A DNA stretch of 64,000 bases from NCBI GenBank assembly GCA_963730935.1, contig CAVSTP010000002.1, forward strand, positions 544,001-608,000. Direction: 5' to 3'. This document shows positions 13,509 through 62,931 of the stretch, one piece after another. The notes below the pieces were generated by a model. It was not told the DNA's origin. It did not search any database and saw nothing but the letters and a program-made list of their open reading frames with translations. The position numbers were made by a program, and so were the translations under genes. Position 1 is the stretch's first letter; the number at the start of each line of letters is the position of its first letter. Origin of the DNA: an uncultured Nitrospiraceae bacterium (GTDB lineage: Bacteria; Nitrospirota; Nitrospiria; Nitrospirales; Nitrospiraceae).

Positions 13509-13527
13509 GGAGGTGCCGCAGGCTGAC

Positions 13528-15495: not shown

Positions 15496-15507
15496 AACGA
15501 CGACACC

Positions 15508-28668: not shown

Positions 28669-28811
28669 CTCGCCGACACCGGCAAGTGCCTGTACGCCCA
28701 GTCAAGCTGCCTCCATCTTCACGCTTTTGTATCCCCTCTTCGGAGCGATGCATGGCTGGTAAGCGCCTGCCACACTTGTACTGCGAGGTCTGCTCAGCGG
28801 GGACCACATGA

Positions 28812-31900: not shown

Positions 31901-34900
31901 ATGTCACGGGCACCGGCGGAGTGACCTATACGGCCGACAACATGACGTTGACCGGTACGACGACTGCCACTGGCGCCATTGCCACGTTGCAACCCACTAA
32001 TGCCGGCCAATTGGTCAACCTTGGCGCTGCCGATGCGGCCGGCACGCTCGGCATCACTGATGCTGAGCTCGATACTGTCACCGCCGGCACGGTTCGCGTG
32101 GGCCGTGCCAATAGCGGCAACATGACGATTTCTAATCCAATCTCCCCTGGAGGCACGAATACACTGTCCCTGATTTCCGGCGGCACCATCACGCAAGGCG
32201 CTGGCGACACCATTACAGAGACCAATCTCCGCGTGAGTGCCGTCAATGCGGTCACGCTTACTCAAGCAAACGACGTGACGACATTCGCTGGAACGGTGAC
32301 CACGGCTGGTCAAGCCCTGCAGTTTACTGATGCGAACGGCTTCACAGTTGGTACCGTCGATGGGGTAATCGGCGTCACGACAAACAATGCTAATGCCGCG
32401 CTGATCGCTACAACCGGCAATATCACGATAGACGATGACATTGCGGTCGGCACGGGTAATGTCGGCATCCAAGCTACGGCTGGAACGATTTCCCAGAATG
32501 CCGGAGATGTGATCACCGCAGCCGGTTTGACCTTGAGGAGCCAAGGGGCCATTACGCTTAACGAAGCCAACGATGTCGATACTCTCGCAGGAAACATTTC
32601 CGGAGCCGGCAACGCCTTTCAGTTCACGGACAGCGATGGCCTCACAATCGGCACCATGGCTGCAGTGGGAGGGGTGGCGGCCACGAACGGCATCACGACG
32701 ACAAACGGCGCAATCACAGTGACCGCGACGAATGGGCCCCTGACCGTGGCCAACACCGCTGCCGCACAGGATGTGAATGCCGGCACGAGCACCGTGGCTC
32801 TGACGGCCGGCGGCGCTAATCAACTGTTGACTGTTACCGGCGCGGTCACCGGCACCGGCGGCGTCACCTACACGGCCGACAACATGACCTTGACCGGCGC
32901 TACGACGGCCACGGGGGCCATTGCCACCTTGCAGCCCAACACCGCCGGGCAACTTGTGAACCTGGGCGCCGCAGATGCGGCCGGCACCTTAGGCTTGACC
33001 GATGCCGAACTCGATACCGTCACCGCAGGCACCTTGCGCGTGGGCCGCGCCAACAGCGGCAACATGACGATCTCCGCCGCGATGACGCCCGCCGGCTCAA
33101 CTACTCTCTCCCTCATCTCAGGTGGCAGCGTCAGCCAGAACGCGGGAGCCACAATCACCGAGACGAACCTTGCCATCAGTGCAGTTGGGGCGGTGACATT
33201 AAATGAAGCGAACAATATGACGACGATCGCGGCGAATGTCACCGGCGCCGGCAACGCCTTTTCCTATACCGATGCCAACGCCCTCACCATCGGCTCCGTC
33301 GATGGGATCAACGGCGTGAGCACCAACAACGGGACGATCACCGTCACCGCGACCAACGGCGCACTGACCGTGAGCAACACGCCGGCCGCCCCCGATGTGA
33401 ACGCCGGCACCAGCACCGTCGCCTTGACCGCCGGCGGGGCCAATCAATTGCTCACCGTGACCGGCACGGTCACGGGTACCGGCGGCGTCACGTACACGGC
33501 CGATAACATGAGCTTGACCGGCGCCACCACGGCCACCGGCGCGATTGCTACGCTACAGCCAAACACGGCTGGCCAACTCGTCAATTTAGGCGGCGCCGAT
33601 GCGGCCGGCACCTTGGGCCTCACCGATGCCGAGCTCGATACCGTGACCGCCGGCACCTTGCGCGTAGGCCGCGCCAACAGCGGCAACATGACGATCTCCG
33701 CTGCAATGACGCCCGCAGGCACGAGCACCCTCACGCTGCTCTCCGGTGCTGCGGTTACGGAAACCGCCGGCTCGACCATTACCACGACCAACCTGCGAGT
33801 CAGCAGCGTCGGTGCGGTCGACCTGACACAGAATAATGACATAACCACCCTGGCCGGCAATGTGAGCGGAGCCGGCAATACGTTCGGTTTTGTTGACACC
33901 AACGGTTTTGCCGTTGGAACTGTCGACACTGTCACGGGCCTCACTACAAACAACGGCACAACCCAACTCCGCACTACAGCAGGCAACCTCGACATTAATC
34001 AACCGATCAATGTCGGAACGGCTAACCTAGGTCTCCAAGCTGCCGCGGGCACGATCACACAGAGTGGACCAGGCACAATCACCGCAGATGGCCTTGGCAT
34101 TCGAGCCCAGAACAATGTGTCGCTGACGCTCGCCAACGACGTCAATACGATCGCCGCGAACATCACGGGAGCGGGCAATAGCTTCACTTATAACGACGCG
34201 ACGGGCGTCACCATTGGATCGATCCCAGCCATCGGCGCGATCGCAGCCATCGACGGCGTCACGACAAATAATGGCGCGATCAGTGTCGCGACGACCAACG
34301 GGGCCTTGACCGTCAGCAACACCCCGGCCGCCCCCGATGTGAACGCCGGCACCAGCACGGTGGCCTTGACCGCCGGTGGCGTCAACCAACTGCTCACCGT
34401 CACCGGCACCGTCACCGGCACCGGGGGCGTGACCTATACCGCCGACAACATGACCTTGACCGGCGCCACCAACGCCGGCGCCAACATCGCCACCCTGCAA
34501 CCCAACACCGCCGGCCAGCTCGTGAACCTCGGCGCCGCCGATGCGGCCGGTACGCTGGGCTTGACCGATGGCGAGCTCGACACCGTCACCGCCGGCACCG
34601 TGCGCGTGGGCCGCAATAATAGTGGCAACCTCACCATCTCGGCCGCCATCGATACGGCGAACACCACGACGACCACCTTGATCTCTGGCGGCACGGTGAC
34701 GCAGACCGCGCCCATCACGGAAACCAATCTCGCCGTCAGCAGTGTCGGCGCCGTCACCTTAACGAACGCCGGCAACGATGTGACGACGCTCGCCGCCAAT
34801 GTCACCGGCGCCGGCAATGCCTTCAGCTATACCGATGCCAATGCCCTCACCATTGGCACCGTCGATGGGATCAACGGCGTGGCCACCAACAACGGGGCCA

Positions 34901-37900
34901 TCACGGTGGCCACCACCAACGGCGCCTTGACCGTCAGCAACACCCCGGCCGCCCCCGATGTGAACGCCGGCACCAGCACGGTGGCCTTGACCGCCGGTGG
35001 CGTCAACCAACTGCTCACCGTCACCGGCACCGTCACCGGCACCGGGGGCGTGACCTATACCGCCGACAACATGACCTTGACCGGCGCCACCAACGCCGGC
35101 GCCAACATCGCCACCCTGCAACCCAACACCGCCGGCCAGCTCGTGAACCTCGGCGCCGCCGATGCCGCCGGTACGCTGGGCTTGACCGATGGCGAGCTCG
35201 ACACCGTCACCGCCGGCACGTGCGCGTGGGCCGCCACAAGTGGCAACCTCACCATCTCGGCCGCCATCGATCCGGCCGAACACCACGACGACCACCTTGA
35301 TCTCTGGCGGCACGTGACGCAGACCGCGCCCATCACGGAAACCAATCTCGCCGTCAGCCAGCGTCGGCGCCGTCACCTTAACGAAGCCGGCAATGATGTG
35401 ACGACGCTCGCCGCCAATGTCACCGGCGCCGGCAATGCCTTCAGCTATACCGATGCCAATGCCCTCACCATTGGCACCGTCGATGGGATCAACGGCGTGG
35501 CCACCAACAATGGGGCCATCACGGTGGCCACCACCAACGGGGCCTTGACCGTCAGCAACACCCCGGCCGCCCCCGATGTGAACGCCGGCACCAGCACGGT
35601 GGCCTTGACCGCCGGTGGCGTCAACCAACTGCTCACCGTCACCGGCACCGTCACCGGCACCGGGGGCGTGACCTATACCGCCGACAACATGACCTTGACC
35701 GGCGCCACCAACGCCGGCGCCAACATCGCCACCCTGCAACCCAACACCGCCGGCCAGCTCGTGAACCTCGGCGCCGCCGATGCGGCCGGTACGCTGGGCT
35801 TGACCGATGGCGAGCTCGACACCGTCACCGCCGGCACCGTGCGCGTGGGCCGCAATAATAGTGGCAACCTCACCATCTCGGCCGCCATCGATACGGCGAA
35901 CACCACGACGACCACCTTGATCTCTGGCGGCACGGTGACGCAGACCGCGCCCATCACGGAAACCAATCTCGCCGTCAGCAGTGTCGGCGCCGTCACCTTA
36001 ACGAACGCCGGCAACGATGTGACGACGCTCGCCGCCAATGTCACCGGCGCCGGCAATGCCTTCAGCTATACCGATGCCAATGCCCTCACCATTGGCACCG
36101 TCGATGGGATCAACGGCGTGGCCACCAACAATGGGGCCATCACGGTGGCCACCACCAACGGCGCCTTGACCGTCAGCAACACCCCGGCCGCCCCCGATGT
36201 GAACGCCGGCACCAGCACGGTGGCCTTGACCGCCGGTGGCGTCAACCAACTGCTCACCGTCACCGGCACCGTCACCGGCACCGGGGGCGTGACCTATACC
36301 GCCGACAACATGACCTTGACCGGCGCCACCAACGCCGGCGCCAACATCGCCACCCTGCAACCCAACACCGCCGGCCAGCTCGTGAACCTCGGCGCCGCCG
36401 ATGCCGCCGGTACGCTGGGCTTGACCGATGGCGAGCTCGACACCGTCACCGCCGGCACCGTGCGCGTGGGCCGCAATAATAGTGGCAACCTCACCATCTC
36501 GGCCGCCATCGATACGGCGAACACCACGACGACCACCTTGATCTCTGGCGGCACGGTGACGCAGACCGCGCCCATCACGGAAACCAATCTCGCCGTCAGC
36601 AGTGTCGGCGCCGTCACCTTAACGAACGCCGGCAACGATGTGACGACGCTCGCCGCCAATGTCACCGGCGCCGGCAATGCCTTCAGCTATACCGATGCCA
36701 ATGCCCTCACCATTGGCACCGTCGATGGGATCAACGGCGTGGCCACCAACAATGGGGCCATCACGGTGGCCACCACCAACGGCGCCTTGACCGTCAGCAA
36801 CACCCCGGCCGCCCCCGATGTGAACGCCGGCACCAGCACGGTGGCCTTGACCGCCGGTGGCGTCAACCAACTGCTCACCGTCACCGGCACCGTCACCGGC
36901 ACCGGGGGCGTGACCTATACCGCCGACAACATGACCTTGACCGGCGCCACCAACGCCGGCGCCAACATCGCCACCCTGCAACCCAACACCGCCGGCCAGC
37001 TCGTGAACCTCGGCGCCGCCGATGCCGCCGGTACGCTGGGCTTGACCGATGGCGAGCTCGACACCGTCACCGCCGGCACCGTGCGCGTGGGCCGCAATAA
37101 TAGTGGCAACCTCACCATCTCGGCCGCCATCGATACGGCGAACACCACGACGACCACCTTGATCTCTGGCGGCACGGTGACGCAGACCGCGCCCATCACG
37201 GAAACCAATCTCGCCGTCAGCAGTGTCGGCGCCGTCACCTTAACGAACGCCGGCAACGATGTGACGACGCTCGCCGCCAATGTCACCGGCGCCGGCAATG
37301 CCTTCAGCTATACCGATGCCAATGCCCTCACCATTGGGACGGTGGACGGGATTAATGGCGTCACGACAAATAATGGAAACATCGGCCTGCAGACCGGAGG
37401 CGCCCTCGCCATCAATCAAGCATTGAGTGCCGGGACGGCGACTGTCGGATTGAATGCAGGTGGAGCCGTGACGCAAGGTGCGGCAGGCATCATCACAGCT
37501 AACGAACTGAATCTGCGCGGCTCCGGGCCCTTCACACTTACGAATGCATCCAATGACGTAAATGCAGTTGGAGCGAATACGACGGGCGCAATCCAGTTGA
37601 CGGACGTCGATGACCTTACCGTTGGCTCTGTCAGTGCGGTTGGGACGATTGCCGCAAGTACTGGCATCACGGCGGCGGGCAATGTGACGCTGACGACGAC
37701 CAACGGTGGGGCGCTCACGATCGATCAGCCGATTACGACGACCACTAACGGCACGCTGACGCTGACCAATGCGGGCCTCTTAGCGCTTAATGCCAATCTC
37801 GATGCCGATGGAGCGATCACCCAGAATGGGGCGGGGGCGACCACGACGACAGGCACCCGGACCCTCACCACGACCAATGATGCCGTGACCTTGACGCAAG

Positions 37901-40900
37901 GGCTCACGCTTGGCGGCGATCTCACGATTTCTACCGGTACGGGCCCGATTGCGTTTAACAGCACCGTCAACGGCGGCGGAAATCTCACGGCCAATAGCAC
38001 CGGGACCACGACCTTCGCCGGTCCAGTGGGCGGCGGCACGCCGCTCACGAGCCTCACGACCAATGCGGGCGGCACGACGGCCCTCAATGGCGGCGCCGTC
38101 ACCACCACTGGGGCACAAACTTATAATGATGCAGTCACTTTGGGCGCCGATACGACGCTCACGAGCACCGGCGCGGGGGCGATCACGTTGGGCAGCATCG
38201 TCAACGGCGCGCAGAGCCTGATCGTCAACACCATTGGCCTGACGACCTTCGCGGGCCCAGTGGGCGGCATCACGCCGCTCACGAGCCTCACGACCAATAC
38301 GGGGGGCACGACGGCCCTCAACGGCGGAACAGTCACGACGACGGGGGCGCAGACCTACAATGATGCGGTCACGTTGGGGGCGGATACGACGCTCACGAGC
38401 ACGGGCGCCGGCACGCTCACGTTAGGCAGCACGGTCAACGGCGCCCAGAGCCTGATCGTGAACACCACGGGCCTGACGGCGCTCATGGGCCCCATTGGAG
38501 GCACCACACCGTTAACGACGTTGACCACGAACGCGGGCGGCACGACCGATCTGAACGGCGGGACGGTGGTGACCACGGGCGCCCAGACCTATAACGATGC
38601 CGTGCTGCTCAGTGCCGACACGACGCTCACGGCGGGGGTCGGCAATATTACGTTTGGGAACACGGTCGACAGTACGGCGGGCAATACGTTTAGCCTGACC
38701 GCCAACAGCACGGGCACGACGACCTTCAGCGGCGCCGTGGGGACCACCGATGCACTCACGAGCCTGACGACCAACGCGGGGGGCACGACGGCCCTCAACG
38801 GCGGGACCATCACGACGACGGGGGCGCAGACCTACAATGATGCGGTCACGTTGGGGGCGGCCACCACGCTCACCAGTACCGGCGCGGGCACTATCACGCT
38901 GGGCTCCACCGTCAACGGCGCGCAGAGCCTCGCCGTCAATACGGCGGGCCTGACCACGCTGACCGGTCCCGTGGGCGGCGTCACGCCGCTCACCAGCGTG
39001 ACGACCGATCAGCCGGGCACGGTCACGGTGGGCAGCGTCACCACGACCGGGGCACAGAGTTATCAGGAGAATACGGTGAGCTTGAACGGCACCTACACCA
39101 CCACCAACAGCCCGGTCACCGTCGGCACCGCGGCCGCCGCGATCACGCTGGGTGGGAACACAACGGTGACGACCGGCGCCGGCAATATTCTCTTCAATGG
39201 CACGGTGGATGGCGCGCAGAGCCTGACCCTGAACAGTACGGGCACGACGACCGTCAGCGGGGCAGTGGGCGGCACGACGCCGCTCACGAGCCTCACGACC
39301 AATGCGGGCGGCACGACCGCGGTCAATGGGGGCAGCGTCACGACCACGGGCAACCAGAGCTACGGCGATGCCGTCACGATGAATCAAGCCACCACCTTCA
39401 CGACCACCGGCGGCGGCAGCAGCGTGAGCTTCGGCAATAACGTGACCAATACGTTGGCCGGGGCCTCCCTCACCGTGAATACGCCGGCCCTCAGTTTGGC
39501 CAACGGCAGCACGGTGGCGACCACGGGTAACGGCAACATCAGCTTTATCGTCGATGGCCTCACGCCCGGTACCGCCAGCATCAATGCGGGCACGGGCACC
39601 TTCCAGATCAGCCCCTCCACGCCGACCAAGACCATTGAGTACGGCGATGTGGATACGGCGCGCGTGACGGATGTCTATTACGGCTCGACGTTCACCAACA
39701 TTACCGCCGGCCAGTTCACGATCGGCGGGGCGACCCAGACGGGCGACATCTTTGTGACGGGCGTGGCCGCAGCCCCGGCCGCCACGACGCTGCAGACCAC
39801 CGGGACCGGCGCCGTCACCTTCGAGACGGCCCCCTATGTGACGGGCAATCTGGATCTGGGCGTCGTCAGTGGGAGCGGGGGCATCACGCTGGGCCAGAAC
39901 GTGACCCTGGGCACCGGGACGCTGCGGCTCACCACCACCGGCGCAATCACGCAGACTGGGGGCAGTCTCACGGCGGATCTCCTCGGCGCCTCGGCCGGCA
40001 CGAGCATCACGCTCAATCAGGCGGGCAACGATGTGAATGTCGTGGCCGCGCAAAGTGCGGCCGGCGGGATCACCCTGCGCGATAGCGACGATCTGGTCCT
40101 TGGTGCCGCGCCCGCGGTCGCCGGCCTGCATCCCGCGATCAATGGGCTCACCGCCCCCGGGCAAAGCGTGACCCTGACCACGGACGGCGCCTTGAGTCAG
40201 ACCCAGCCCATCGTCGCCGACAGTCTCACGGCCACGACGCTCAATAATGCGGGGGCCGCGATCACGCTGACCGATCCGGGCAATGCGGTCACCACCGTGA
40301 CGCTCCAGGCCCGCAATGCCGCCAATACGACCGATGCCGCCGGAGCCATTGCCTATCGCGATAGCGATGGCGTGGATATCGCCGGTGTGCGCACGACCAG
40401 TACCTTCGATCTCACGACCGCTGGGCCGATCACCAGTAGCGGCGCCCTGATCGTGGGTGGCACGACCACGCTCACCGCTGGCGCGGCCAACAACATCACA
40501 CTGAACAACGCCAACGACTTCAGCACGGTGAGCGTCGTGAGCGGCAACAACGTGACGCTCAACGATGTGAATGCCCTGGATCTCGGCGCCTCGACCATCA
40601 GTGGCGGGCTCACCGTCACCACCAATGGCGCGATTACGGATAGCGGCAATCTCACCGTGGCCGGCACGACGACCTTGGCGGCCGGGGCGGGCAACAACAT
40701 CACCTTGAATAACGCCAACGATTTCAGCACGGTCGCCATCACCAGCGGCAACACCGTCGTATTGAACGACATCAATGCGCTCGATCTCGGGGCTTCCACC
40801 ATCAGCGGCGGGCTCACCGTCACCACCAATGGCGCGATTACCGATAGCGGGAACGTGACCGTGGTTGGCACGACGACCCTCGCCGCCGGGGCGGGCAACA

Positions 40901-43900
40901 CCATCACGCTCAACAACGCGAACGACTTCAGCACCGTCAGTGTCGTGAGCGGCAACACCGTGACCCTCAACGATGTGAATGCCCTGGATCTCGGCGCCTC
41001 GACCATCAGTGGCGGGCTCACCGTCACCACCAATGGCGCGATTACCGATAGCGGCAATCTCACCGTGGTCGGCCCGACCACCTTGGCCGCCGGCGCCGGC
41101 AACAACATCACCTTAATAACGCGAACGACTTCAGCACGGTGAGCGTCGTGAGCGGCAACAATGTCGTGTTGAACGACATCAATGCGCTCGATCTCGGGGC
41201 TTCCACGATCAGCGGCGCGCTCTCCGTCACCACCAATGGCGCGATTACCGATAGCGGCAATTTGACCGTGGTTGGCCCGACCACCTTGGCCGCCGGCGCC
41301 GGCAACAACATCACCTTGAATAACGCCAACGACTTCAGCACCGTCAGCGTCGTGAGCGGCAACAATGTCGTGTTGAACGACATCAATGCGCTCGATCTCG
41401 GGGCTTCCACCATCAGCGGGACGCCTCACGTTACCACCAACGGCGCGATTACCGATAGCGGCAATTTGACCGTGGTTGGCCCGACCACCCTCGCCGCCGG
41501 CGCGGGCAACAACATCACCTTGAACAACGCCAACGATTTCAGCACCGTCAGCGTCGTGAGCGGCAACACCGTCGACGTTGAACGACATCAATGCGCTCGA
41601 TCTCGGCGCTTCCACCATCAGCGGGACGCTCTCCGTTACCACCAACGGTGCGATTACCGATAGCGGCAATTTGACCGTGGTTGGCCCGACCACCCTCGCC
41701 GCCGGGGCGGGCAACAACATCACCTTGAACAACGCCAACGACTTCAGCACGGTCAGCGTCGTGAGCGGCAACACCGTGACGCTCAACGATGTGAATGCGC
41801 TCGATCTCGGCGCTTCCACCATCAGCGGCACCTTGAGCATCACCACCAACGGGGCCATTACCGACAGCGGTGCGCTCAGCGTCGTGGGGACCACGACCCT
41901 CACCGCCGGGGCCGCCAACAACATCACCTTAAACAACGCCAACGACTTCAGCACGGTCAGTGTCGTGAGCGGCAACACTGTGGTGCTCAACGACGTGAAC
42001 GCGCTGGATCTCGGCGCCTCCACCATCAGCGGGGATCTGAATGTCACCACCGGCGGGGCCGTGACGCAGTCGGGCGCCCTGACCGTGGCCGGCAATGCCG
42101 CCTTCGATACCTCCGCCGCGGCCACCTTAGGCTCGGTGAGCTTCACCGATAGCAATGCGTTGACGTTGAACAACTCGCTGGTGGGCGGCAACCTGACCGT
42201 CACCACGGGCGCCGGCGATATCACGCTGCCCGCGGGCCAGACCCTGACGGTGGCGGGCAATATCACCTTGACCCCGGCCGGGGCAGTGGATCTACAAGGC
42301 ACCACCCAGATCGGCGGCACCCAATCCTATGTGGGCGGCACGGGCTCCACCTTTGTGCTCGGCGCGGATACCAATCTCAATACCTTGCCGTTGCCCGCGT
42401 CCGGCTCCGTCACGGTCAATACGACCGGCACCACCACGACCTTTGGCGGTCCGCCGATCCTGGGCCAAGCCATTGATCTCCCCCATGCCGGCAATAGCAT
42501 CGGCGGCACCGTGCGGTTTACCACTGCCGCCCCGGCCGTGACCGGCGCGACCCAAAACACCTATAACCTCACGCAGAGTGCTCCGGTCACCTTCAATCCC
42601 GGGCAAACCTTGACGGTCACGGACTTGGGCGGCACGGCCGGCAAGCGCGGCAATATCAGCCTGCCCAATGCCGCCAACACGTTCCAGGATGTGAATCTGC
42701 TCGGCGGCAATCTGGCCCTGACCGATAGCGGCCCGCTGAATATCGGCGCCACCGGCCTCAGTGCCAATGCCGGCACCACCAGCACGGGCACCCTCGCCTT
42801 GACCAGCACCGGGGCGATCACCCAGAGCGGCCCGATCACCGCGGCCGGCCTCACGACGCTTACGGCGGGCGCGGCCAACAACATTCTGCTCAATCACGCC
42901 GCCAACGACTTCAGCACCGTCAGTGTCGTGAGCGGCAACAATGTCGTGTTGAACGACATCAATGCGCTCGATCTCGGGGCTTCCACGATCAGCGGGACGC
43001 TCTCCGTTACCACTAACGGCGCGATTACCGATAGCGGCAATCTCACCGTGGTCGGCCCGACCACCTTGGCCGCCGGCGCCGGCAACAACATCACCTTGAA
43101 TAACGCCAACGACTTCAGCACGGTGAGCGTCGTGAGCGGCAACAATGTCGTGTTGAACGACATCAATGCGCTCGATCTCGGGGCTTCCACGATCAGCGGC
43201 ACCTTGAGCGTTACCACCAACGGCGCGATTACCGAGAGCGGCAATTTGACCGTGACCGGCCCGACCACCTTGGCGGCCGGGGCGGGCAACAACATTACCT
43301 TGAACAACGCCAACGACTTCAGCACGGTCAGTGTCGTGAGCGGCAATAATGTGGCGTTGAACGACATCAATGCCTTGGATCTCGGCGCTTCCACCATCAG
43401 CGGCGCCCTCACCGTCACCACCAATGGGGCGATTACCGAGAGCGGCAATTTGACCGTGACCGGCCCGACCACCTTGGCCGCGGGGGCCGGCAACAACATT
43501 ACCTTGAACAACGCCAACGACTTCAGCACGGTCAGTGTCGTGAGCGGCAATAATGTGGCGTTGAACGACATCAATGCCTTGGATCTCGGCGCCTCCACCA
43601 TCAGCGGCGCCTTGACCGTGACCACCAATGGGGCCATTACCGAGAGCGGCAATTTGACCGTGACCGGCCCGACCACCTTGGCCGCCGGGGCCGCCAACAA
43701 CATTACCTTGAACAACGCCAACGACTTCAGCACGGTGAGCGTCGTGAGCGGCAATAACGTGACCCTCAACGATGTGAACGCCTTGGATCTGGGCACCTCC
43801 ACCATCAGCGGCACCTTGAGCATCACCACCAATGGCGCGATCACCGACAGCGGTGCGCTCACCGTCGTGGGTCCGACCACACTGAGTGCCGGGGCGGGCA

Positions 43901-46900
43901 ACACCATCACGCTCAATAACGCGAACGACTTCAGCACCGTCGCCATCACCAGCGGCAACACCGTCGTGTTGAACGACATCAATGCGCTCGATCTCGGGGC
44001 TTCCACGATCAGCGGCACCTTGAGCGTCACCACCAACGGCGCCATTACCGATAGCGGCAATCTCACCGTGGTCGGCACGACCACCTTGGCCGCCGGCGCC
44101 GGCAACAACATCACGCTCAACAACGCGAACGACTTCAGCACCGTCGCCATCACCAGCGGCAACACCGTCGTGTTGAACGACATCAATGCGCTCGATCTCG
44201 GGGCTTCCACGATCAGCGGCACCTTGAGCGTCACCACCAATGGGGCGATTACCGAGAGCGGCAATCTCACCGTGGTCGGCACGACCACCTTGGCCGCCGG
44301 CGCCGGCAACACCATCACGCTCAATAACGCGAACGACTTCAGCACGGTGAGCGTCGTGAGCGGCAACAATGTCGTGTTGAACGACATCAATGCGCTCGAT
44401 CTCGGGGCTTCCACGATCAGCGGGACGCTCTCCGTTACCACTAACGGCGCCATTACCGACAGCGGCAATCTCACCGTGGCGGGCACCACGACCCTCGCGG
44501 CGGGCGCCGCCAACAACATCACGCTCAACAACGCGAACGACTTCAGCACGGTGAGCGTCGTGAGCGGCAACACCGTCGTGTTGAACGACATCAATGCGCT
44601 CGATCTCGGGGCTTCCACGATCAGCGGGACGCTCTCCGTTACCACTAACGGCGCCATTACCGACAGCGGCAATCTCACCGTGGCGGGCACCACGACCCTC
44701 GCGGCCGGCGCCGCCAACAACATCACGCTCAACAACGCGAACGACTTCAGCACCGTCGCCATCACCAGCGGCAACACCGTGACCCTCAACGACGTGAATG
44801 CTCTGGATCTTGGCCCTTCCACAGTGGGTACGACCTTGACCGTGACCACCGGAGGGCCGCTGACGCAGAGCGGGCCGATCCTGGTCCCGAATCTTGCGGT
44901 GACCAGCAACGGACCTGTCACTCTGACCAACCCCAGTAACGATGTTGATACCTTCGCAGCTCAAGTGAGCGGTGCAGGAAATGGCATCCAGATGACAGAT
45001 ATCGATAGTCTCACGGTAGGTACGGTGGGGGCACTTAGCGGGATCACCACAAACAATGGCGATATTGCGCTCATCACCGGTGGCGCACTCACCATCAATC
45101 AAGCCTTAGCGGCCGGCACGGCCAACGTGGGCTTAGATGCCGGCGGCGCCGTCACTCAAGGCGCGGCCGGCATCATCACAGGCAACGAACTGAATCTGCG
45201 TGGCTCCGGCCCATTCACGCTCACAAATGCGTCGAATGATGTGAACACCGTTGGAGCCACTACCACGGGGGCCATTCAACTCACCGACGTCGATGATCTC
45301 ACCGTGGGATCGGTCAACGCCGTGGGGACGCTGGCCGTAAGTAGCGGCATCACGGCGGCGGGCAGTGTGACGCTGACGACGACCAACGGTGGGGCACTCA
45401 CGATCGATCAGCCGATTACGACGACCACCAATGGCACGCTCACGCTGACCAATGCGGGCCTCTTAGCGCTTAATGCCAATCTCGATGCCGATGGGGCGAT
45501 CACCCAGAATGGGGCCGGGGCGATTACCACCACGGGCACCCGGACCGTCACCACGACCAATGATGCGGTGAATGTGACTCAAGCCGTCACGCTTGGCGGC
45601 GATCTCACGATCAGCACCGGCACAGGCCCGATTAGCTTTAATAGCACGATCAATGGCGGCGGCAATCTCACGGCCAATAGCACCGGGACCACGACCTTCG
45701 CGGGCCCAGTGGGCGGCATCACGCCGCTCACGAGCCTCACGACCAATACGGGGGGCACGACGGCCCTCAACGGCGGAACAGTCACGACGACGGGGGCGCA
45801 GACCTACAATGATGCGGTCACGTTGGGGGCGGATACGACGCTCACGAGCACGGGCGCCGGCACGCTCACGTTAGGCAGCACGGTCAACGGCGCCCAGAGC
45901 CTGATCGTGAACACCACGGGCCTGACGGCGCTCATGGGCCCCATTGGAGGCACCACACCGTTAACGACGTTGACCACGAACGCGGGCGGCACGACCGATC
46001 TGAACGGCGGGACGGTGGTGACCACGGGCGCCCAGACCTATAACGATGCCGTGCTGCTCAGTGCCGACACGACGCTCACGGCGGGGGTCGGCAATATTAC
46101 GTTTGGGAACACGGTCGACAGTACGGCGGGCAATACGTTTAGCCTGACCGCCAACAGCACGGGCACGACGACCTTCAGCGGCGCCGTGGGGACCACCGAT
46201 GCACTCACGAGCCTGACGACCAACGCGGGGGGCACGACGGCCCTCAACGGCGGGACCATCACGACGACGGGGGCGCAGACCTACAATGATGCGGTCACGT
46301 TGGGGGCGGCCACCACGCTCACCAGTACCGGCGCGGGCACTATCACGCTGGGCTCCACCGTCAACGGCGCGCAGAGCCTCGCCGTCAATACGGCGGGCCT
46401 GACCACGCTGACCGGTCCCGTGGGCGGCGTCACGCCGCTCACCAGCGTGACGACCGATCAGCCGGGCACGGTCACGGTGGGCAGCGTCACCACGACCGGG
46501 GCACAGAGTTATCAGGAGAATACGGTGAGCTTGAACGGCACCTACACCACCACCAACAGCCCGGTCACCGTCGGCACCGCGGCCGCCGCGATCACGCTGG
46601 GTGGGAACACAACGGTGACGACCGGCGCCGGCAATATTCTCTTCAATGGCACGGTGGATGGCGCGCAGAGCCTGACCCTGAACAGTACGGGCACGACGAC
46701 CGTCAGCGGGGCAGTGGGCGGCACGACGCCGCTCACGAGCCTCACGACCAATGCGGGCGGCACGACCGCGGTCAATGGGGGCAGCGTCACGACCACGGGC
46801 AACCAGAGCTACGGCGATGCCGTCACGATGAATCAAGCCACCACCTTCACGACCACCGGCGGCGGCAGCAGCGTGAGCTTCGGCAATAACGTGACCAATA

Positions 46901-49900
46901 CGTTGGCCGGGGCCTCCCTCACCGTGAATACGCCGGCCCTCAGTTTGGCCAACGGCAGCACGGTGGCGACCACGGGTAACGGCAACATCAGCTTTATCGT
47001 CGATGGCCTCACGCCCGGTACCGCCAGCATCAATGCGGGCACGGGCACCTTCCAGATCAGCCCCTCCACGCCGACCAAGACCATTGAGTACGGCGATGTG
47101 GATACGGCGCGCGTGACGGATGTCTATTACGGCTCGACGTTCACCAACATTACCGCCGGCCAGTTCACGATCGGCGGGGCGACCCAGACGGGCGACATCT
47201 TTGTGACGGGCGTGGCCGCAGCCCCGGCCGCCACGACGCTGCAGACCACCGGGACCGGCGCCGTCACCTTCGAGACGGCCCCCTATGTGACGGGCAATCT
47301 GGATCTGGGCGTCGTCAGTGGGAGCGGGGGCATCACGCTGGGCCAGAACGTGACCCTGGGCACCGGGACGCTGCGGCTCACCACCACCGGCGCAATCACG
47401 CAGACTGGGGGCAGTCTCACGGCGGATCTCCTCGGCGCCTCGGCCGGCACGAGCATCACGCTCAATCAGGCGGGCAACGATGTGAATGTCGTGGCCGCGC
47501 AAAGTGCGGCCGGCGGGATCACCCTGCGCGATAGCGACGATCTGGTCCTTGGTGCCGCGCCCGCGGTCGCCGGCCTGCATCCCGCGATCAATGGGCTCAC
47601 CGCCCCCGGGCAAAGCGTGACCCTGACCACGGACGGCGCCTTGAGTCAGACCCAGCCCATCGTCGCCGACAGTCTCACGGCCACGACGCTCAATAATGCG
47701 GGGGCCGCGATCACGCTGACCGATCCGGGCAATGCGGTCACCACCGTGACGCTCCAGGCCCGCAATGCCGCCAATACGACCGATGCCGCCGGAGCCATTG
47801 CCTATCGCGATAGCGATGGCGTGGATATCGCCGGTGTGCGCACGACCAGTACCTTCGATCTCACGACCGCTGGGCCGATCACCAGTAGCGGCGCCCTGAT
47901 CGTGGGTGGCACGACCACGCTCACCGCTGGCGCGGCCAACAACATCACACTGAACAACGCCAACGACTTCAGCACGGTGAGCGTCGTGAGCGGCAACAAC
48001 GTGACGCTCAACGATGTGAATGCCCTGGATCTCGGCGCCTCGACCATCAGTGGCGGGCTCACCGTCACCACCAATGGCGCGATTACGGATAGCGGCAATC
48101 TCACCGTGGCCGGCACGACGACCTTGGCGGCCGGGGCGGGCAACAACATCACCTTGAATAACGCCAACGATTTCAGCACGGTCGCCATCACCAGCGGCAA
48201 CACCGTCGTATTGAACGACATCAATGCGCTCGATCTCGGGGCTTCCACCATCAGCGGCGGGCTCACCGTCACCACCAATGGCGCGATTACCGATAGCGGG
48301 AACGTGACCGTGGTTGGCACGACGACCCTCGCCGCCGGGGCGGGCAACACCATCACGCTCAACAACGCGAACGACTTCAGCACCGTCAGTGTCGTGAGCG
48401 GCAACACCGTGACCCTCAACGATGTGAATGCCCTGGATCTCGGCGCCTCGACCATCAGTGGCGGGCTCACCGTCACCACCAATGGCGCGATTACCGATAG
48501 CGGCAATCTCACCGTGGTCGGCCCGACCACCTTGGCCGCCGGCGCCGGCAACAACATCACGCTCAACAACGCGAACGACTTCAGCACGGTGAGCGTCGTG
48601 AGCGGCAACAATGTCGTGTTGAACGACATCAATGCGCTCGATCTCGGGGCTTCCACGATCAGCGGCGCGCTCTCCGTCACCACCAATGGCGCGATTACCG
48701 ATAGCGGCAATTTGACCGTGGTTGGCCCGACCACCTTGGCCGCCGGCGCCGGCAACAACATCACCTTGAACAACGCCAACGACTTCAGCACGGTGAGCGT
48801 CGTGAGCGGCAACACTGTGACGCTCAACGATGTGAATGCGCTCGATCTCGGCGCTTCCACCATCAACGGCGCCTTGAGCGTCACCACCAATGGCGCCATT
48901 ACCGATAGCGGGAACGTGACCGTGGTTGGCCCGACCACCCTCGCCGCCGGCGCGGGCAACAACATCACCTTGAACAACGCCAACGACTTCAGCACCGTCA
49001 GCGTCGTGAGCGGCAACACCGTCGTGTTGAACGACATCAATGCGCTCGATCTCGGGGCTTCCACCATCAGCGGGACGCTCTCCGTTACCACCAACGGTGC
49101 GATTACCGATAGCGGCAATTTGACCGTGGTTGGCCCGACCACCCTCGCCGCCGGGGCGGGCAACAACATCACCTTGAACAACGCCAACGATTTCAGCACC
49201 GTCAGCGTCGTGAGCGGCAACACCGTGACGCTCAACGATGTGAATGCGCTCGATCTCGGCGCTTCCACCATCAGCGGCACCTTGAGCATCACCACCAACG
49301 GGGCCATTACCGACAGCGGTGCGCTCAGCGTCGTGGGGACCACGACCCTCACCGCCGGGGCCGCCAACAACATCACCTTAAACAACGCCAACGACTTCAG
49401 CACGGTCAGTGTCGTGAGCGGCAACACTGTGGTGCTCAACGACGTGAACGCGCTGGATCTCGGCGCCTCCACCATCAGCGGGGATCTGAATGTCACCACC
49501 GGCGGGGCCGTGACGCAGTCGGGCGCCCTGACCGTGGCCGGCAATGCCGCCTTCGATACCTCCGCCGCGGCCACCTTAGGCTCGGTGAGCTTCACCGATA
49601 GCAATGCGTTGACGTTGAACAACTCGCTGGTGGGCGGCAACCTGACCGTCACCACGGGCGCCGGCGATATCACGCTGCCCGCGGGCCAGACCCTGACGGT
49701 GGCGGGCAATATCACCTTGACCCCGGCCGGGGCAGTGGATCTACAAGGCACCACCCAGATCGGCGGCACCCAATCCTATGTGGGCGGCACGGGCTCCACC
49801 TTTGTGCTCGGCGCGGATACCAATCTCAATACCTTGCCGTTGCCCGCGTCCGGCTCCGTCACGGTCAATACGACCGGCACCACCACGACCTTTGGCGGTC

Positions 49901-52900
49901 CGCCGATCCTGGGCCAAGCCATTGATCTCCCCCATGCCGGCAATAGCATCGGCGGCACCGTGCGGTTTACCACTGCCGCCCCGGCCGTGACCGGCGCGAC
50001 CCAAAACACCTATAACCTCACGCAGAGTGCTCCGGTCACCTTCAATCCCGGGCAAACCTTGACGGTCACGGACTTGGGCGGCACGGCCGGCAAGCGCGGC
50101 AATATCAGCCTGCCCAATGCCGCCAACACGTTCCAGGATGTGAATCTGCTCGGCGGCAATCTGGCCCTGACCGATAGCGGCCCGCTGAATATCGGCGCCA
50201 CCGGCCTCAGTGCCAATGCCGGCACCACCAGCACCGGCACCCTCGCCTTGACCAGCACCGGGGCGATCACCCAGAGCGGCCCGATCACCGCGGCCGGCCT
50301 CACGACGCTTACGGCGGGCGCGGCCAACAACATTCTGCTCAATCACGCCGCCAACGACTTCAGCACCGTCAGTGTCGTGAGCGGCAACAATGTCGTGTTG
50401 AACGACATCAATGCGCTCGATCTCGGGGCTTCCACGATCAGCGGGACGCTCTCCGTTACCACTAACGGCGCGATTACCGATAGCGGCAATCTCACCGTGG
50501 TCGGCACGACCACCTTGGCCGCCGGCGCCGGCAACAACATCACCTTGAATAACGCCAACGACTTCAGCACGGTGAGCGTCGTGAGCGGCAACAATGTCGT
50601 GTTGAACGACATCAATGCGCTCGATCTCGGGGCTTCCACGATCAGCGGCACCTTGAGCGTTACCACCAACGGCGCCATTACCGAGAGCGGCAATTTGACC
50701 GTGACCGGCCCGACCACCTTGGCGGCCGGGGCGGGCAACAACATTACCTTGAACAACGCCAACGACTTCAGCACGGTCAGTGTCGTGAGCGGCAATAATG
50801 TGGCGTTGAACGACATCAATGCCTTGGATCTCGGCGCTTCCACCATCAGCGGCGCCCTCACCGTCACCACCAATGGGGCGATTACCGAGAGCGGCAATTT
50901 GACCGTGACCGGCCCGACCACCTTGGCCGCGGGGGCCGGCAACAACATTACCTTGAACAACGCCAACGACTTCAGCACGGTCAGTGTCGTGAGCGGCAAT
51001 AATGTGGCGTTGAACGACATCAATGCCTTGGATCTCGGCGCCTCCACAGTGAGTAGCACGCTGACGGTGACGACCGGCGGCGCCCTGACCCAGAGCGGGA
51101 CGGTGGTTGCCCCCAATCTGGCCGTGACCAGCAGTGGCCCCGTCACCTTGACCAATGCGGCCAATGATTTCGATACCGTGGCGTTCCAAGTGGCAGGCGC
51201 GGGCAACGGCGTACAGCTCACCGATGTCGATGGCCTCACGGTGGGCACGGTCGGCGCGGTCACGGGCATCACCGCCGCCGGCAATGTGGCGCTGACGACG
51301 ACCAACGGCGGGGCGCTCACGATCGCTCAACCGATCACGACCACCAACACCGGCACCCTCACGCTCACCAATGCCGGCACGCTGGCGCTCAATGCCAATC
51401 TCGATGCCGATGGCCCGATCACGCAGAACGGGGCAGGCGCGATCACAGCGACCGGCGCCCGCACGGTCACCACGACCAACGATGCGGTGACCTTGACGCA
51501 AGGCCTCACCTTGGGCGGCGATCTCACGATCAGCACCGGTACGGGCCCGATTGCTTTCAACAGCACCGTTAACGGCGGCGGCAATCTCACGGCCAATAGC
51601 ACCGGTACCACCACCTTTGCCGGCGCGGTCGGCGCCGTCACGCCGTTGACCTCACTCACGACCAATGCGGGCGGGACGACCGCCCTCAACGGCGGCACGG
51701 TCGTGACGACGGGCGCGCAGACCTACATTGATGCGGTGACGCTCGGCGCGGATACGACGCTGACCAGCACGGGCGCGGGCGCGATCACCCTGAACGGCAC
51801 CGTCAACGGCGCCCAGAGCCTGACCGTGAACACCGCGGGCGCCACGACCTTGGCCGGCCCGATCGGCGGCGGCACGCCGCTCACCAGCGTCACGACCGAT
51901 CAGCCGGGCATCGTTACGGTGGGGAGTGTGACGACGACCGGGGCGCAGAGCTATCAGGAGAATACGGTCAGCTTGGGCGGCACCTATACGACCACCAATA
52001 GTGCGTTCACCGCGGGCACGGCCGCGGCCGCGGTGACGTTGGGCGGCGCCACGACCATCACGACCGGCACCGGCACGATTCTCGTCAACGGCACTATTGA
52101 TGGCGCCCAGAGCCTGACCCTCAATAGCACCGGCACGACGACGCTCGCCGGCGCGGTGGGCGGCACCACGCCGTTGACCGCGCTCACGACCAATGCGGGC
52201 GGCACCACGGCCGTGAACGGCGGCAGCGTCACCACGACCGGCAATCAAACCTATGGCGATGCCGTCACGATGAATCAAGCGACCACACTCACGAGTACGG
52301 CTGGAACCGTGCAGTTCGACAATACGGTCACGAACTCCGTCGGCGGCGCCAGCATTACAGTGGATGCCCTGACGATTACCTTGAATGCCGCCACGACGAT
52401 GGCGACCACCAATGGCAACCTCAGCTTCTTTACCGATACGCTCAACACGAATGGCGCAAGCATCAATGCCGGCACCGGCGCCTTTGCGATTGCGCCCAGT
52501 ACCGTGACGAAGACGATTGAATTCGGCGATGTGGATACCGCCCGCACGACCGATGTGTACTACAGCTCCAACTTCGGCAGCATCGTGGCCGGAAGCTTTA
52601 CGGTCGGTCGTCCCGCTCAGACTGGAGATATTTTTGTCACCGGCGTGGCTAGCTTGACGACACCACTCACGGTCATCAACGGAGGGACCGGTGCTCTGAC
52701 CGTAGAAAACGCGGCTCTCACGAGTCCGAACAACAGCTCTGTGGGTCTTGTCAGCGGGTCCGGTGGGACGACCTTGGCTGCCGATGTGAACGTCGGCACC
52801 GGTACATTGCGGATCACAAGCACAGGCGCCATTGCTCAAAGCGGGGGAGCAATTACGGCCGATACACTTGCTCTGGCCGCAGGAACCGGCATCAACGTTG

Positions 52901-54207
52901 CGCAAGCCGGAAACGATGTCACAACACTCGCCGCTCAGACGGCAGTAGGTGGATTGGCCTTCCGCGATAGTGACGGCTTTATCATTGGCAGCATCGTGGC
53001 CAGCGGCGACGGGTTCCATCCGGCCATCACCGGTCTCAACGCCGGCGTTTCGGATGTGGCCTTGTCCGCTGGCGGACCAGTGACGCAGACCGCACCTATT
53101 AATGCCGGTGGACTGAGCCTTCAGGGAACTGGTCCCTATACGCTGACTCACGGTGCCAACGACGTTGAAACGATCGCGGCCAACACCACGGGAACCATTG
53201 AGTTCACCGACGTCGATGATCTCACCGTTGGCGCTGTGGCCGCAGTCGGCACGATCCCGGCCTCCGGCGGCCTCACCAGCGGCAACAACGATATCGCCCT
53301 CATCACCGGCGGGGCCCTCACGCTTAATCAGGCCGTTAATGCCGGTACGGCCGATGTGGGCTTGCAGGCCAATGGCCCCGTCACTCAAGGCGCGGCCGGC
53401 AACATCACCGCCAATGAACTCAATCTCCGCGGCAGCGGGCCCTTCACGCTCACGAACAATGCCAATGATGTGAACACCGTGGGCGCAACCGTCACCGGCA
53501 CGCTCCAGCTCACCGACGTCGATGATCTCACCGTTGGCGCTGTGGCCGCAGTCGGTACGATCCCGGCCTCCGGCGGCCTCACCAGCGGCAACAACGATAT
53601 CGCCCTCATCACCGGCGGGGCCCTCACGCTTAATCAGGCCGTTAATGCCGGTACGGGCAACATAGGGATTGCGTCGGGAGGATCCACGACTCAAGGTGGA
53701 GCCGGTCAATTAACGGGAGATAATTTGAATCTCCAAGGCAATGGACCATACGTCCTGACGAATCCAAATAACGACATCAACACCGCCGGCGGAACCGTGT
53801 TGGCTTCTCTCGTATCGATTGCCGACATCAATGGCTTCACGGTTGGTAACGTGCCGGCGGTGGGGACGTTACCGGCCGCCGGACCGTTCCCAAACGCTCC
53901 ACCATCTATTTTCGCAACCGTCGGCGGCCGCGGACTCTTGCAGGGGGTGGAAAGCACATTCGTTTACTTGAACCCGGAAACATTCATTCCCCTTTACTAT
54001 CCTTTCGGCCATCCAATGTTGGGATGGACAATCCGGAGTGTCACATCACTGTATGTGCCTACCACTCCGCTCAATTTGCCCTTGTTTGACAACAGGGCCT
54101 CCGGGACGCAATCGGTTGGTGGTTCTGGAAGTTGTGGTGAGCGATCCGGCGAGAAGGAAGACCAATCGGCGCCCAGAGGCGGCTGTGAGGAGGGCGTCAT
54201 TAAGTAG
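28933..54207 (+). CDS. Giant filamentous-haemagglutinin-type TpsA adhesin, about 8,424 aa once two compensating 1-nt indels (about 41115 and about 41574) are corrected
   Basis: Signal peptide, TPS domain (ILNWNSFSI, LNRVTG, INPNGILFG), GGQIETSG, LLDP, then Gly/Thr/Asn/Ala beta-helix repeats. ORFs 28933-41142 and 41578-54207 share one frame and the same 68-aa repeat continues through the frameshifted 41139-41663 ORF. Confidence 0.9.
34294..37337 (+). repeat. About 5 near-identical tandem 621-bp (207-aa) units within tpsA
   Basis: Unit starts at 34294, 34915, 35533, 36154 and 36775 (periods 621, 618, 621, 621; last unit truncated). Older diverged units lie at about 31780-33900. Confidence 0.95.
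38242..43598 (+). repeat. 5.36-kb direct duplication, copy 1 (offset 7449 bp)
   Basis: Near-identical to 45691-51047; identical antisense ORFs recur at +7449 (e.g. 38512/45961, 42327/49776). Confidence 0.95.
40489..42033 (+). repeat. 204-bp (68-aa) tandem repeat block A, about 8 units
   Basis: NNITLNNANDFSTVSVVSGN..LNDINALDLGASTISG.L.VTTNGAITDSGNLTV.G.TTLAAGAG recurring at 204-bp period. Confidence 0.95.
42877..44815 (+). repeat. 204-bp tandem repeat block B, about 10 units
   Basis: Same unit; starts at 43084, 43288, ... 44716. Confidence 0.95.
45691..51047 (+). repeat. 5.36-kb direct duplication, copy 2; contains 204-bp blocks C (47938-49482, about 8 units) and D (50326-51047, about 4 units)
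   Basis: Near-identical to 38242-43598 and free of frameshifts. Confidence 0.95.
53206..53656 (+). repeat. 145-bp direct repeat near the tpsA 3' end (53206-53350 and 53512-53656)
   Basis: Near-identical segments at 306-bp offset (TDVDDLTVGAVAAVGTIPASGG...). Confidence 0.9.
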
Positions 54208-54365
54208 TTATGCATAGCTGATCGATGCGAAAGACAGACTCTAGAGACCCAATTGCCTTTATAAGACTATGATTATATTAGTAGTTTTTGGTATTTTCTC
54301 CTCCATCCTTCCGTAGCCCCTCTTCAGGGCAATGCGCTTTTCCTGAAATCTGCGACACTTTTAGT

Positions 54366-55622
54366 ATGGACAGGATCGATCACAGACCGGCCCTACGCCC
54401 TGCCATACGATTATGTCCTACACAAATAGGTGTGGTTTGGATCATCACACTCACCCTCGCTATGGGGGTGCTGACCACAACGGCCGCCGCTCAGGATCAA
54501 TCCGAGCATCGCACGATTCTTAACCAGAAGAGTTTCTCATTCGTCGTCGACGAGATTAGTCGGTTACTGGGGCCGAGGGAGCAGCCTATTGCCTTGCACC
54601 GGGTCATCGGGATCGACCAGTCGCTGACAATGAGTCAACTCTCGAAGGACAACCGACTGGTTGTGATCAATCCTCATCGAGTGTTATTCGCCGATTTTGG
54701 ATTCGTCGATACGGGCGAATTCCTGGCGACCACGTTGCGGGTCCGTGGCAGCCGCGACGCCAAGGCTGCCGTCAGCACCAGTACCGTCCGCGTCTCCGAA
54801 CACGGATATATTGCATTGATGACACCTGGTGTCACAACCGAAGCCGTCGTCATTGCAGCCGTGAGCACGGCACCATCGGATGCTGAACAGAAGATCCTGT
54901 TTGATTTCATGAGCGATGGCCTCATCCGGTATGCCATCGGGGAAAGCGAACTGAATCACTTCACCGGGGTCGATGGAAAGGCCTTGATCAAGGCCTCATC
55001 TGACGGAGAGCGGCTCGAAGCTGGCTCCGGGCAGATGTTGATGAATGCCAGGTCGGCCGCCGACATCCAACGGTCCGTGATGAATATCGGCAATGTCACT
55101 CGTGCTCGACGCTTGGTGGTTGAAAACAGCTCAATCCGACTTGAGGGAGAGAGCCCACTTGCGGCGAGCGTGAGGCGGCCAAGCAGCTCGCTCTCCCATG
55201 AAAATGCAAGCAGCAAACCCCTTCACAAGGAGCTTGAAAACAAGGCGGCTCAAGCGGATATAGCCACCGCGAAGGTCAGTCCCATGTCATCGAGCTCAAA
55301 TCACGATGCGCTGCATACGTCTGACAACAAGGGTACACCTATGAACAGCACGTCTCTCCTGCACAAGCGGTTGCAGAGTCGGCCACCAGCTGTAGCGAAC
55401 AAACCCCTCCCACGATCCAGGGAGTCCACACTTCAGCAAGCCGGCCGAACCGAAGGCAAGAGCGGAGCAAAAGGCAAAATGAAAGCCCAAAAGTCGACCC
55501 CTCACGCACGAGCTCAGCAACCACCGTCTGCGCTGTCGATCCCTCATCAGCCGGTTCTGCCGGATTGGATGAAGTATCTTCCGAAGAGTGAAGGCACCAC
55601 TGACAATCCAGCGGTCCCCTAG
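54366..55622 (+). CDS. Exported protein made of a degenerate TPS (haemagglutination-activity) domain and a low-complexity basic tail
   Basis: Signal peptide (TTTAAA-Q); colinear similarity to the TpsA N-terminus from ILNQKSFSF to SSIRLEGESP. Start codon uncertain. Confidence 0.8.
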   Translation: MDRIDHRPALRPAIRLCPTQIGVVWIITLTLAMGVLTTTAAAQDQSEHRTILNQKSFSFVVDEISRLLGPREQPIALHRVIGIDQSLTMSQLSKDNRLVVINPHRVLFADFGFVDTGEFLATTLRVRGSRDAKAAVSTSTVRVSEHGYIALMTPGVTTEAVVIAAVSTAPSDAEQKILFDFMSDGLIRYAIGESELNHFTGVDGKALIKASSDGERLEAGSGQMLMNARSAADIQRSVMNIGNVTRARRLVVENSSIRLEGESPLAASVRRPSSSLSHENASSKPLHKELENKAAQADIATAKVSPMSSSSNHDALHTSDNKGTPMNSTSLLHKRLQSRPPAVANKPLPRSRESTLQQAGRTEGKSGAKGKMKAQKSTPHARAQQPPSALSIPHQPVLPDWMKYLPKSEGTTDNPAVP

Positions 55623-55636
55623 CGATCTACCACGGG

Positions 55637-56134
55637 TTACGTGAACCGTCGTACCTGCTCGTTGAGGATTTGAGCAATCATGGAAGTGTCGAACGGCCAC
55701 GCGTATTGGATCGAGACTTCCGGATGTCTCGCTCTCACGCCATGAAGTATTTCCGGAATCTCGATCTCCGAATGGGCGCCCCCGGGTGTGAACATCGTGG
55801 TCGCCACGGTGATGCGAGTCGCGCCTTGCCTGATGAGGTCTTCGATCGATTCCTCCACACTGGGGGCGCAGAATTCGTTGTAGGCTAACGCAAAGAGAGC
55901 GCCATCCAGCAGCGGCCGCAAAGCGGCGCCGACCGCTTCCAACCCAGCTCGATAGGGATCAGTGGCGGCCGTCCTTGGCCACTGGCGGATGGTGGCGTCC
56001 AGTTCCCGTTCTTCGGCCGACGGAGGTGTGCCGGCAGCGCGCCGTTGGGCCTCTAAGCGTTTAAATTTGCTGACGAGTTCAGCCGGACAATCCTTCGCAA
56101 TGCCCCCGTGACCGACCAATACCACGCCACGCAT
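55637..56134 (-). CDS. CbiX/SirB-family sirohydrochlorin chelatase (short form)
   Basis: VLVGHG, AYNEFCAPS, MFTPGGAHSEIEIP (two metal-binding His). Confidence 0.85.
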   Translation of the reverse strand: MRGVVLVGHGGIAKDCPAELVSKFKRLEAQRRAAGTPPSAEERELDATIRQWPRTAATDPYRAGLEAVGAALRPLLDGALFALAYNEFCAPSVEESIEDLIRQGATRITVATTMFTPGGAHSEIEIPEILHGVRARHPEVSIQYAWPFDTSMIAQILNEQVRRFT

Positions 56135-57982: not shown

Positions 57983-58030
57983 GACATCCTTGACATCCCT
58001 AAGTCGTGGGAATACGTTCCCAAGGATGTC
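57983..58030 (+). promoter_or_regulatory. Sigma-70 promoter overlapped by palindromes (putative operator)
   Basis: TTGACA(57990)-N17-TACGTT(58013); TGGGAA-TACG-TTCCCA (58007-58022); GACATCCTTG (57983) / CAAGGATGTC (58021) inverted repeat. Confidence 0.65.
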
Positions 58031-62843: not shown

Positions 62844-62931
62844 GAAGACCGATATGGATCTCGTTGGCAACGAATCCACACTAAGTAACTGCGCGTAGTA
62901 TTGGCTGAACGGGCCGCATTAGGGGGTGTCC

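Follow-up and report, generated by a model that had tools for sequence, protein, structure and literature searches.

A TPS-derived gene downstream of a giant tpsA in Nitrospiraceae: a plausible third component of a two-partner secretion system

In the text available from a review of two-partner secretion (PMC5422565), the NPNG motif of the TPS domain is called crucial for folding and secretion, extended amphipathic TPS segments are described as bound by POTRA domains, and the H1 helix and linker of FhaC itself are described as gating the site. The first Asn of NPNG is called essential for the secretion of FHA and ShlA in the available portion of PMC10284417, where the mutational data are second-hand. 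The accessible text of the review leaves two points open, namely which property lets the TPS domain serve as a secretion signal and whether folding is nucleated by it; templating in trans is reported there solely for engineered fragments in vitro, those of ShlA and HpmA templating the folding of the full-length protein (PMC5422565). Nothing TPS-derived is included in the extra genes that the same text lists. HMW1C/EtpC, HxuC, CdiI/CdiO/CdiC, SphB1, LapG and the orphan CdiA-CT cassettes each represent a further gene accompanying a TpsB/TpsA pair (PMC5422565, as far as its accessible text goes).

The locus described here lies in a 64-kb window (the whole stretch of DNA analysed; C2:544001-608000 of genome G000) and contains, in this order, pyrE, tpsB, tpsA, a short gene and cbiX. 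The short protein shares a signal peptide, a TPS-derived domain and a tpsB-tpsA locus with the TpsA passengers of the HMW1/EtpA/HxuA subfamily (type Vb) but has no stalk or effector domain, NPNG, cap or Cys anchor, and its C-terminal part is a basic linker followed by a unique motif. A lone TPS domain is also common to the engineered TPS-only fragments (Fha30, HpmA265 and the ShlA N-terminal fragment) and the HMW1 pro-piece; however, these are truncations or cleavage products of native sequence, whereas the short gene is a separate natural gene with 34% identity. The HMW1 pro-piece (HMW1-PP) is presumably a cleaved-off piece. Orphan CdiA-CT cassettes duplicate the 3′ end of tpsA, whereas the short gene duplicates the 5′ end. 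With the H1 helix and linker of FhaC and CdiB, the short protein would share occupation of the pore or POTRA groove at rest (PMC5422565, text available in part); H1 acts in cis within TpsB, whereas the equivalent that we infer here would act in trans. Neither a TPS-only paralog nor such a Nitrospiraceae locus was found described in the full-text literature searched, in which subscription journals are sparsely covered and supplements are not included.

Layout of the locus and the short gene product

The features of the locus are listed in Table 1. The short gene is an uninterrupted ORF (54288, TTG, to 55622), and ATG 54366 is likely its start, giving 418 aa, because the gene call on the contig has this length and the 74 nt upstream are conserved as DNA, without an in-frame start in L036. 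The first-pass annotation had reported the uninterrupted frame, a colinear alignment with the TPS domain of the neighbouring TpsA, a retained signal peptide and the loss of the first β-strands, all of which were borne out. BLASTP aligned the short protein with the N-terminus of TpsA at 34% identity over 235 aa (E = 5e-43), and all seven peptide pairs quoted by that annotation are present, in order; by eye and hydropathy, Sec signal peptide features (hydrophobic residues 21-35, then AAA followed by Q at 42/43) were found, as in orthologs; and the N-terminal cap strands are missing from the alignment. Three features had been overlooked: the loss of 15 residues, the motif at the C-terminus and the conservation of the element upstream.

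Table 1. Coordinates of the features identified in the window.
Feature	Position	Strand	Evidence
tpsB transporter: POTRA and ShlB barrel	26857..28668	+	Pfam PF08479, PF03865
Promoter-like element upstream of tpsA, homologous to the upstream element of the short gene	28715..28780	+	nhmmer E 2.4e-4
Giant tpsA adhesin gene, DUF5649 repeats, 8425 codons if bridged	28933..54207	+	
Canonical TPS domain of TpsA, NPNG intact, HMW1/EtpA/HxuA-like	29059..29826	+	PF05860 E 1.2e-34; EtpA E 1.3e-43
C-terminal segment of TpsA: LPLFDNR signature and Cys pair, likely periplasmic anchor (role after PMC5422565, text available in part)	53953..54186	+	
Conserved 74-nt non-coding element, likely the short gene's own promoter	54292..54365	+	DNA conservation in L034-L037
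Predicted Sec signal peptide, 42 aa, AAA then Q	54366..54491	+	sequence, hydropathy, alignment
Remodelled TPS-derived domain	54492..55160	+	no cap strands, 15-residue flap deleted, dN/dS 0.12-0.41
NPHR in the TPS-derived domain	54669-54680	+	
Extra-helical hairpin (MSDGL), kept in the short protein	54909-54923	+	
Basic low-complexity linker, likely disordered; conserved length and net charge	55161..55556	+	19/19 crown proteins
Conserved C-terminal motif LP[DE]WMKYLP of the short protein	55557..55583	+	
cbiX, convergent neighbour and locus boundary	55637..56134	-	PF01903, synteny

An HMM search for the haemagglutination domain, proposed earlier as a check, recovered the TPS homology, although in the window protein the score stays below the curated cut-offs (14.6 versus 33.5 bits for Pfam PF05860 and 12.6 versus 29.1 bits for TIGR01901); both cut-offs are passed by the early-branching members P0020, P0168 and P0173. 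This sub-threshold TPS match was the only one in the Pfam scan, NCBIfam gave no other credible match, and diagnostic domains of known TPS accessory proteins (glycosyltransferase, TonB receptor, immunity, protease) were found with neither. A profile of the short family matches 6830 proteins at E ≤ 0.001, reflecting TPS homology, and, among structures, EtpA (8cpk, E = 2e-6) and HMW1-PP (2odl, E = 0.69). Language-model features match TPS clusters at 0.94 and 0.92, with weak recognition (2173 versus the 2300 mark). AlphaFold2 models were of too low quality for judging a right-handed β-helix (mean pLDDT 31.5 with 20 rows and 54.7 with 87 rows), the best-predicted part being the extra-helical hairpin (pLDDT 68-77), and searches with these poor models gave no Foldseek match at E ≤ 0.001 and no VIA-align match at Z ≥ 5. 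The complex predicted for TpsB, the TPS-like domain and the C-terminal 36 aa scored 0.00, which is evidence neither way. As to RNA, four of four runs yielded contigs with small shares; in one run, two 151-nt pieces cover 54212-54514 at depth 2, the rest of the short gene being uncovered, and this does not count as evidence of expression.

The tpsB-tpsA pair is present in the locus of the short gene. The tpsB ORF opens at 26827, its start at 26857 being chosen by reading. A comparison of N-termini revealed a 75-aa acidic Pro/Thr/Glu linker ahead of POTRA1 of TpsB. Such a long linker occurs in 5 of 18 readable TpsB N-termini, including all three carriers of the short gene and G368, which lacks it; the idea that the linker depends on the short protein is rejected by the latter case. 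The TpsBs of G000, G030, G006, G082, G368 and G300 form a long-linker clade (window 26950-27175; L114-L132), and in the other group the mature protein begins almost at POTRA1. By eye, an H1 plug helix was recognisable in none of the 18 N-termini. Elsewhere in G000 (C4:28780-30675 and C4:34945-35499), a second tpsB-like gene (E = 8e-33) is located near a weakly TPS-like frame (E = 1e-5).

Origin, distribution and constraint

The sequence search identified 21 proteins, 19 of them with 48-92% identity over 60-94% of the query, and profile and distant-member searches brought the short family to 33 proteins, some fragmentary. In quick trees of 69 and 37 rows, with SH-aLRT support alone, all short members fall on the same side of a 100% branch. 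With five distant TpsAs as the root, they nest beside TpsAs of the P0021/P0174/P0177 type (SH-aLRT 94), a placement that the larger tree leaves open and that long branches weaken, the path to the window protein comprising ~1.9 changes per column compared with ~0.02 for the sister TpsA type. Derivation from its own neighbour, the G000 TpsA, was considered separately and rejected (p-AU = 3.9e-6).

The first-pass annotation held that the 8,000-aa stalk of TpsA had been replaced by a Ser/Lys/Pro tail of ~150 aa. The tail itself stands (153 aa, low-complexity, with 23 Ser, 18 Ala, 17 Pro and 14 Lys), whereas its origin appears to differ. In all seven early-branching members tested, the first ~90 aa of the tail align with the TpsA stalk just after the TPS domain, in six of the seven best with the P0021/P0174/P0177 type. 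The tail of P0168, for example, shows 42% identity to the stalk (E = 2e-19), with 69.7 bits against 22.7 bits for the best of 200 shuffles; none of nine other tails tested aligned with the stalk at E < 0.2. These alignments indicate that the tail did not simply replace the stalk and is, in the early-branching members, eroded stalk. Thus the probable promoter, the signal peptide, the TPS domain and some stalk were duplicated and then eroded, and the comparisons as a whole point to a tpsA gene of another type whose 5′ part was copied long ago. The short gene is a clear example of a gene born by partial duplication of a 5′ end together with its promoter. A birth of the C-terminal motif by frameshift from the tpsA stalk, also considered, was unsupported by comparison, and the motif LP[DE]WMKYLP was found in no other protein among the 34,786 six-frame ORFs of the genome.

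In all seven loci with flanks (the window, G030, L035-L038, and L039, the G082 locus), the short gene directly follows the 3′ end of tpsA, and in six of them cbiX comes next. Among 371 genomes of the family, scored with at most four candidates per genome and many of them incomplete, 51 places with E < 1e-40 were found, of which 30 were inspected; they comprise 3 short genes (G000, G030 and G082) and 48 TpsA-type sequences in 48 genomes. Thus 3 of the 48 genomes with this TpsA type carry the short gene, one of them with a stop, and the gene is accessory, optional and lineage-restricted. The whole TPS cassette lies between pyrE (25815-26531) and cbiX. The genus provided 24 cbiX loci, of which 10 adjoin pyrE without TPS genes (L044-L046, L048 and L050-L055), 7 have a tpsA end without the short gene, 2 have the short gene and 5 have other neighbours; since pyrE and cbiX are directly adjacent in those 10 genomes, the cassette is a gain/loss module at a fixed site. 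Among 27 loci selected by their tpsA end, of which one is probably a chance match, the family HMM matches 6. Locus scans by sequence pattern, which are insensitive, gave one locus in genome contigs and five in metagenome contigs, and a search with a short degenerate pattern gave chance matches alone.

The TpsA end carries LPLFDNR in seven of seven loci with the short gene and in none of 10 printed tpsA ends without it, and this holds across two genera (G000 and G082). A short protein that binds the periplasmic C-terminal segment of TpsA, helping to retain or release the giant adhesin, would account for this, as it would for the G082 TpsA end (L039:1-1093), which has no Cys pair. We consider such binding quite improbable, because the loci are kin and the genes adjacent, so that a single event may lie behind the co-occurrence, which kinship and linkage may explain, and because six of the seven TpsA ends keep a Cys pair able to anchor alone. 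In the window, the two Cys are 17 residues apart (54133-54186), as in the HMW1/HxuA anchors.

The TPS-like residues 43-265 show dN/dS values of 0.12-0.41 (median 0.19; 15 pairs from six sequences, dS up to ~2), the highest being that of the G000-G030 pair; cbiX gave 0.11-0.17 (four pairs) and the linker of the short protein 0.5-1.0. In the 26-codon C-terminal end region, values of 0.15-0.96 come from few sites, and its core alone is invariant: P-[DEK]-W is present at the end of all 31 members that reach it, the close group having LP[DE]WMKYLP and the early-branching members mostly WRQPKWNF-like sequences. The linker is 117-139 aa long with a net charge of +5 to +14 in each of the 19 crown proteins. 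Of the 74 nt upstream, 72, 71, 68 and 62 are identical in L034-L037, against a neutral expectation of ~49% at dS 0.85. An nhmmer profile of this element found one other significant site in the genome, located upstream of tpsA, and in several other tpsA upstream regions the core aligned with it is TATAAT; there was no Rfam match and no match to the sigma-70 consensus. The element is likely a duplicated promoter.

Taken as evidence on a non-functional, slowly decaying partial duplicate, these data render it very improbable. The gene is missing from most relatives, the G082 copy has an in-frame TAA, and frameshifts interrupt three assemblies of cluster 1, which has 16 members (P0197, P0198/P0199 and P0200), all as decay would produce. 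However, Glu takes the place of the stop in P0173 and P0238, which are related to the G082 protein, and frameshifts affect tpsA itself in both G000 and G030, which makes assembly errors the likely source of such breaks; moreover, decay is opposed by the low dN/dS over a wide range of dS, the invariant derived motifs, the conserved length and charge of the linker, and the conserved upstream element. The substitution pattern thus argues that the short gene is kept by purifying selection and is not a decaying copy. The first-pass annotation had suggested a retained function and had named synteny and dN/dS as checks; both came out in its favour, with orthologs behind tpsA in seven of seven loci and dN/dS far below 1 in the TPS-like part.

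Remodelling of the TPS domain and possible roles

NPHx replaces NPNG in all 29 members covering the site, including the early-branching ones that pass Pfam, whereas N, P and G of the motif are 100% conserved in 44 TpsA rows. The change from NPNG to NPHR noted at first extends to the family as NPHx; that from LNRV to LHRV holds for 72% of 18 crown rows, Arg being retained in all. The accompanying argument for a secretion defect is weaker than it was put, since every member retains the first Asn. Of 95 columns conserved at ≥85% in the 44 TpsAs, the 18 crown rows keep 35, have fixed a change in 35 (a deletion in six) and vary in 25. The TpsAs contain 12.7% Gly, 6.7% Asn and 14.5% charged residues, compared with 7.4%, 3.8% and 21.3%, respectively, in the crown rows; in the aromatic columns, W became Q, F became L and F became V, one F being retained. 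When mapped onto EtpA (through the EtpA alignment and the numbering in the available part of PMC10284417), the losses comprise the cap strands, three of the four aromatic-cluster residues, NG of NPNG and the α1/β13 flap, and the retained elements are the first Asn, Arg of LNRV and the extra-helical β20/21 hairpin, which is nearly invariant.

It is possible, and the best explanation at hand although a tentative one, that the short protein is a substrate mimic that engages TpsB without completing export. The single origin, the NPNG to NPHx change, the linkage to tpsA in seven of seven loci, the shared upstream element and the absence of a recognisable H1 all speak for it. Export of the product to the periplasm is predicted, and the loss of the cap, the aromatic cluster, NG and many turn Gly and Asn residues would impair folding-driven secretion. 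The remaining amphipathic segments could then bind POTRA domains or become stuck in the pore, a tether on the periplasmic side could be provided by the basic linker together with the C-terminal motif, and the protein might gate idle TpsB or tune the amount of giant adhesin threaded. Engagement without finishing export is suggested because the earliest universal change hits the turn called crucial and because POTRA domains bind extended amphipathic segments, according to the available text of PMC5422565.

Several observations weigh against such a mimic. A folded domain that has acquired a new surface agrees better than an unfolded decoy with a dN/dS close to the cbiX values, and the highest value, in the G000-G030 pair, would also count against it. 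The retention of the first Asn of NPNG and of Arg of LNRV is likewise adverse, and a gate in trans is not required, a TpsB without H1 being the rule in these loci, mostly without the short gene. The C-terminal type of TpsA tracks the gene better than TpsB phylogeny does, and recognition by TpsB may have been lost after ~1.9 changes per column since the split.

Instead of being halted, the short protein might be a second, miniature passenger that TpsB exports and that folds outside as a capless TPS β-helix, tail-tethered or released, to serve as a folding template for TpsA or as a small adhesin. The protein still extends over the entire TPS region as far as IRLEG and retains the first Asn, the essential one in the available text of PMC10284417; the nearly invariant hairpin is also the best-predicted part (pLDDT 68-77), and language-model features match TPS clusters at 0.94. 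Furthermore, secretion of N-terminal truncates is known, more than one TpsA can be exported by certain TpsBs, and ShlA and HpmA TPS fragments template folding in vitro, as far as the accessible text of PMC5422565 goes. Export of this kind is nevertheless unlikely, given the scores below both curated cut-offs and the atlas recognition mark, the loss of the cap, aromatic cluster, NG and α1/β13 flap, and the lack of a Cys anchor in 32 of 33 mature sequences.

The extensive remodelling, in which new charged and aromatic residues were fixed, and the absence of the gene from most TPS loci would also suit a new periplasmic or envelope role unrelated to TPS export, the gene staying by tpsA because it arose there and travelling with it; linkage alone can explain both the synteny and the C-terminal signature of TpsA. 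This we regard as unlikely, as the gene is never found away from tpsA (seven of seven loci), a tpsA-type upstream element is kept under strong constraint, and 35 TpsA-conserved columns are still kept.

At a more general level than mimicry, we lean slightly towards a stand-alone TPS domain with an effect in trans on the secretion system to which it belongs, be it by gating TpsBs without H1, as a folding template or as a retention clamp for the 25-kb adhesin. The short gene is likely an optional helper or brake on adhesin export, and a third component of the TPS system, as first proposed, is plausible for its product from these comparisons. If true, this would be a TPS-derived third component of two-partner secretion with extant intermediates that grade from an intact TpsA into the remodelled protein. 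The family provides natural variants in which the supposedly crucial NPNG was changed first and the cap and flap were then lost stepwise.

The giant tpsA, described at first as encoding ~8,000 aa, is here split into two ORFs of 4069 and 4209 aa, the reading frame shifting by -1 near 41115 and by +1 near 41572, both inside repeats; the size holds if they are bridged (Table 1). The two shifts (41113-41117 and 41570-41574) compensate each other and lie in near-identical repeats. In G030, tpsA is broken at many places, across two contigs, and the frameshifts in both genomes are likely assembly errors. A 5.36-kb block is duplicated within tpsA at 99.3% identity and an offset of 7449 (window 38242-43598 versus 45691-51047), and 621-nt tandem units at 98% occupy window 34249-37361; these represent either recent expansion or an assembly artefact.

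Elsewhere in the window, a DUF6502-DUF5666 pair (57990-60301, +), a putative abortive-infection gene, putAbiC (60978-61751, -), and a gene for a β-helix protein (62926-64000, +) are located downstream. Four consecutive Proton_antipo_M genes are found in a nuo operon (13513-20293), which we take to fit the extra-NuoM complex I of Nitrospira.
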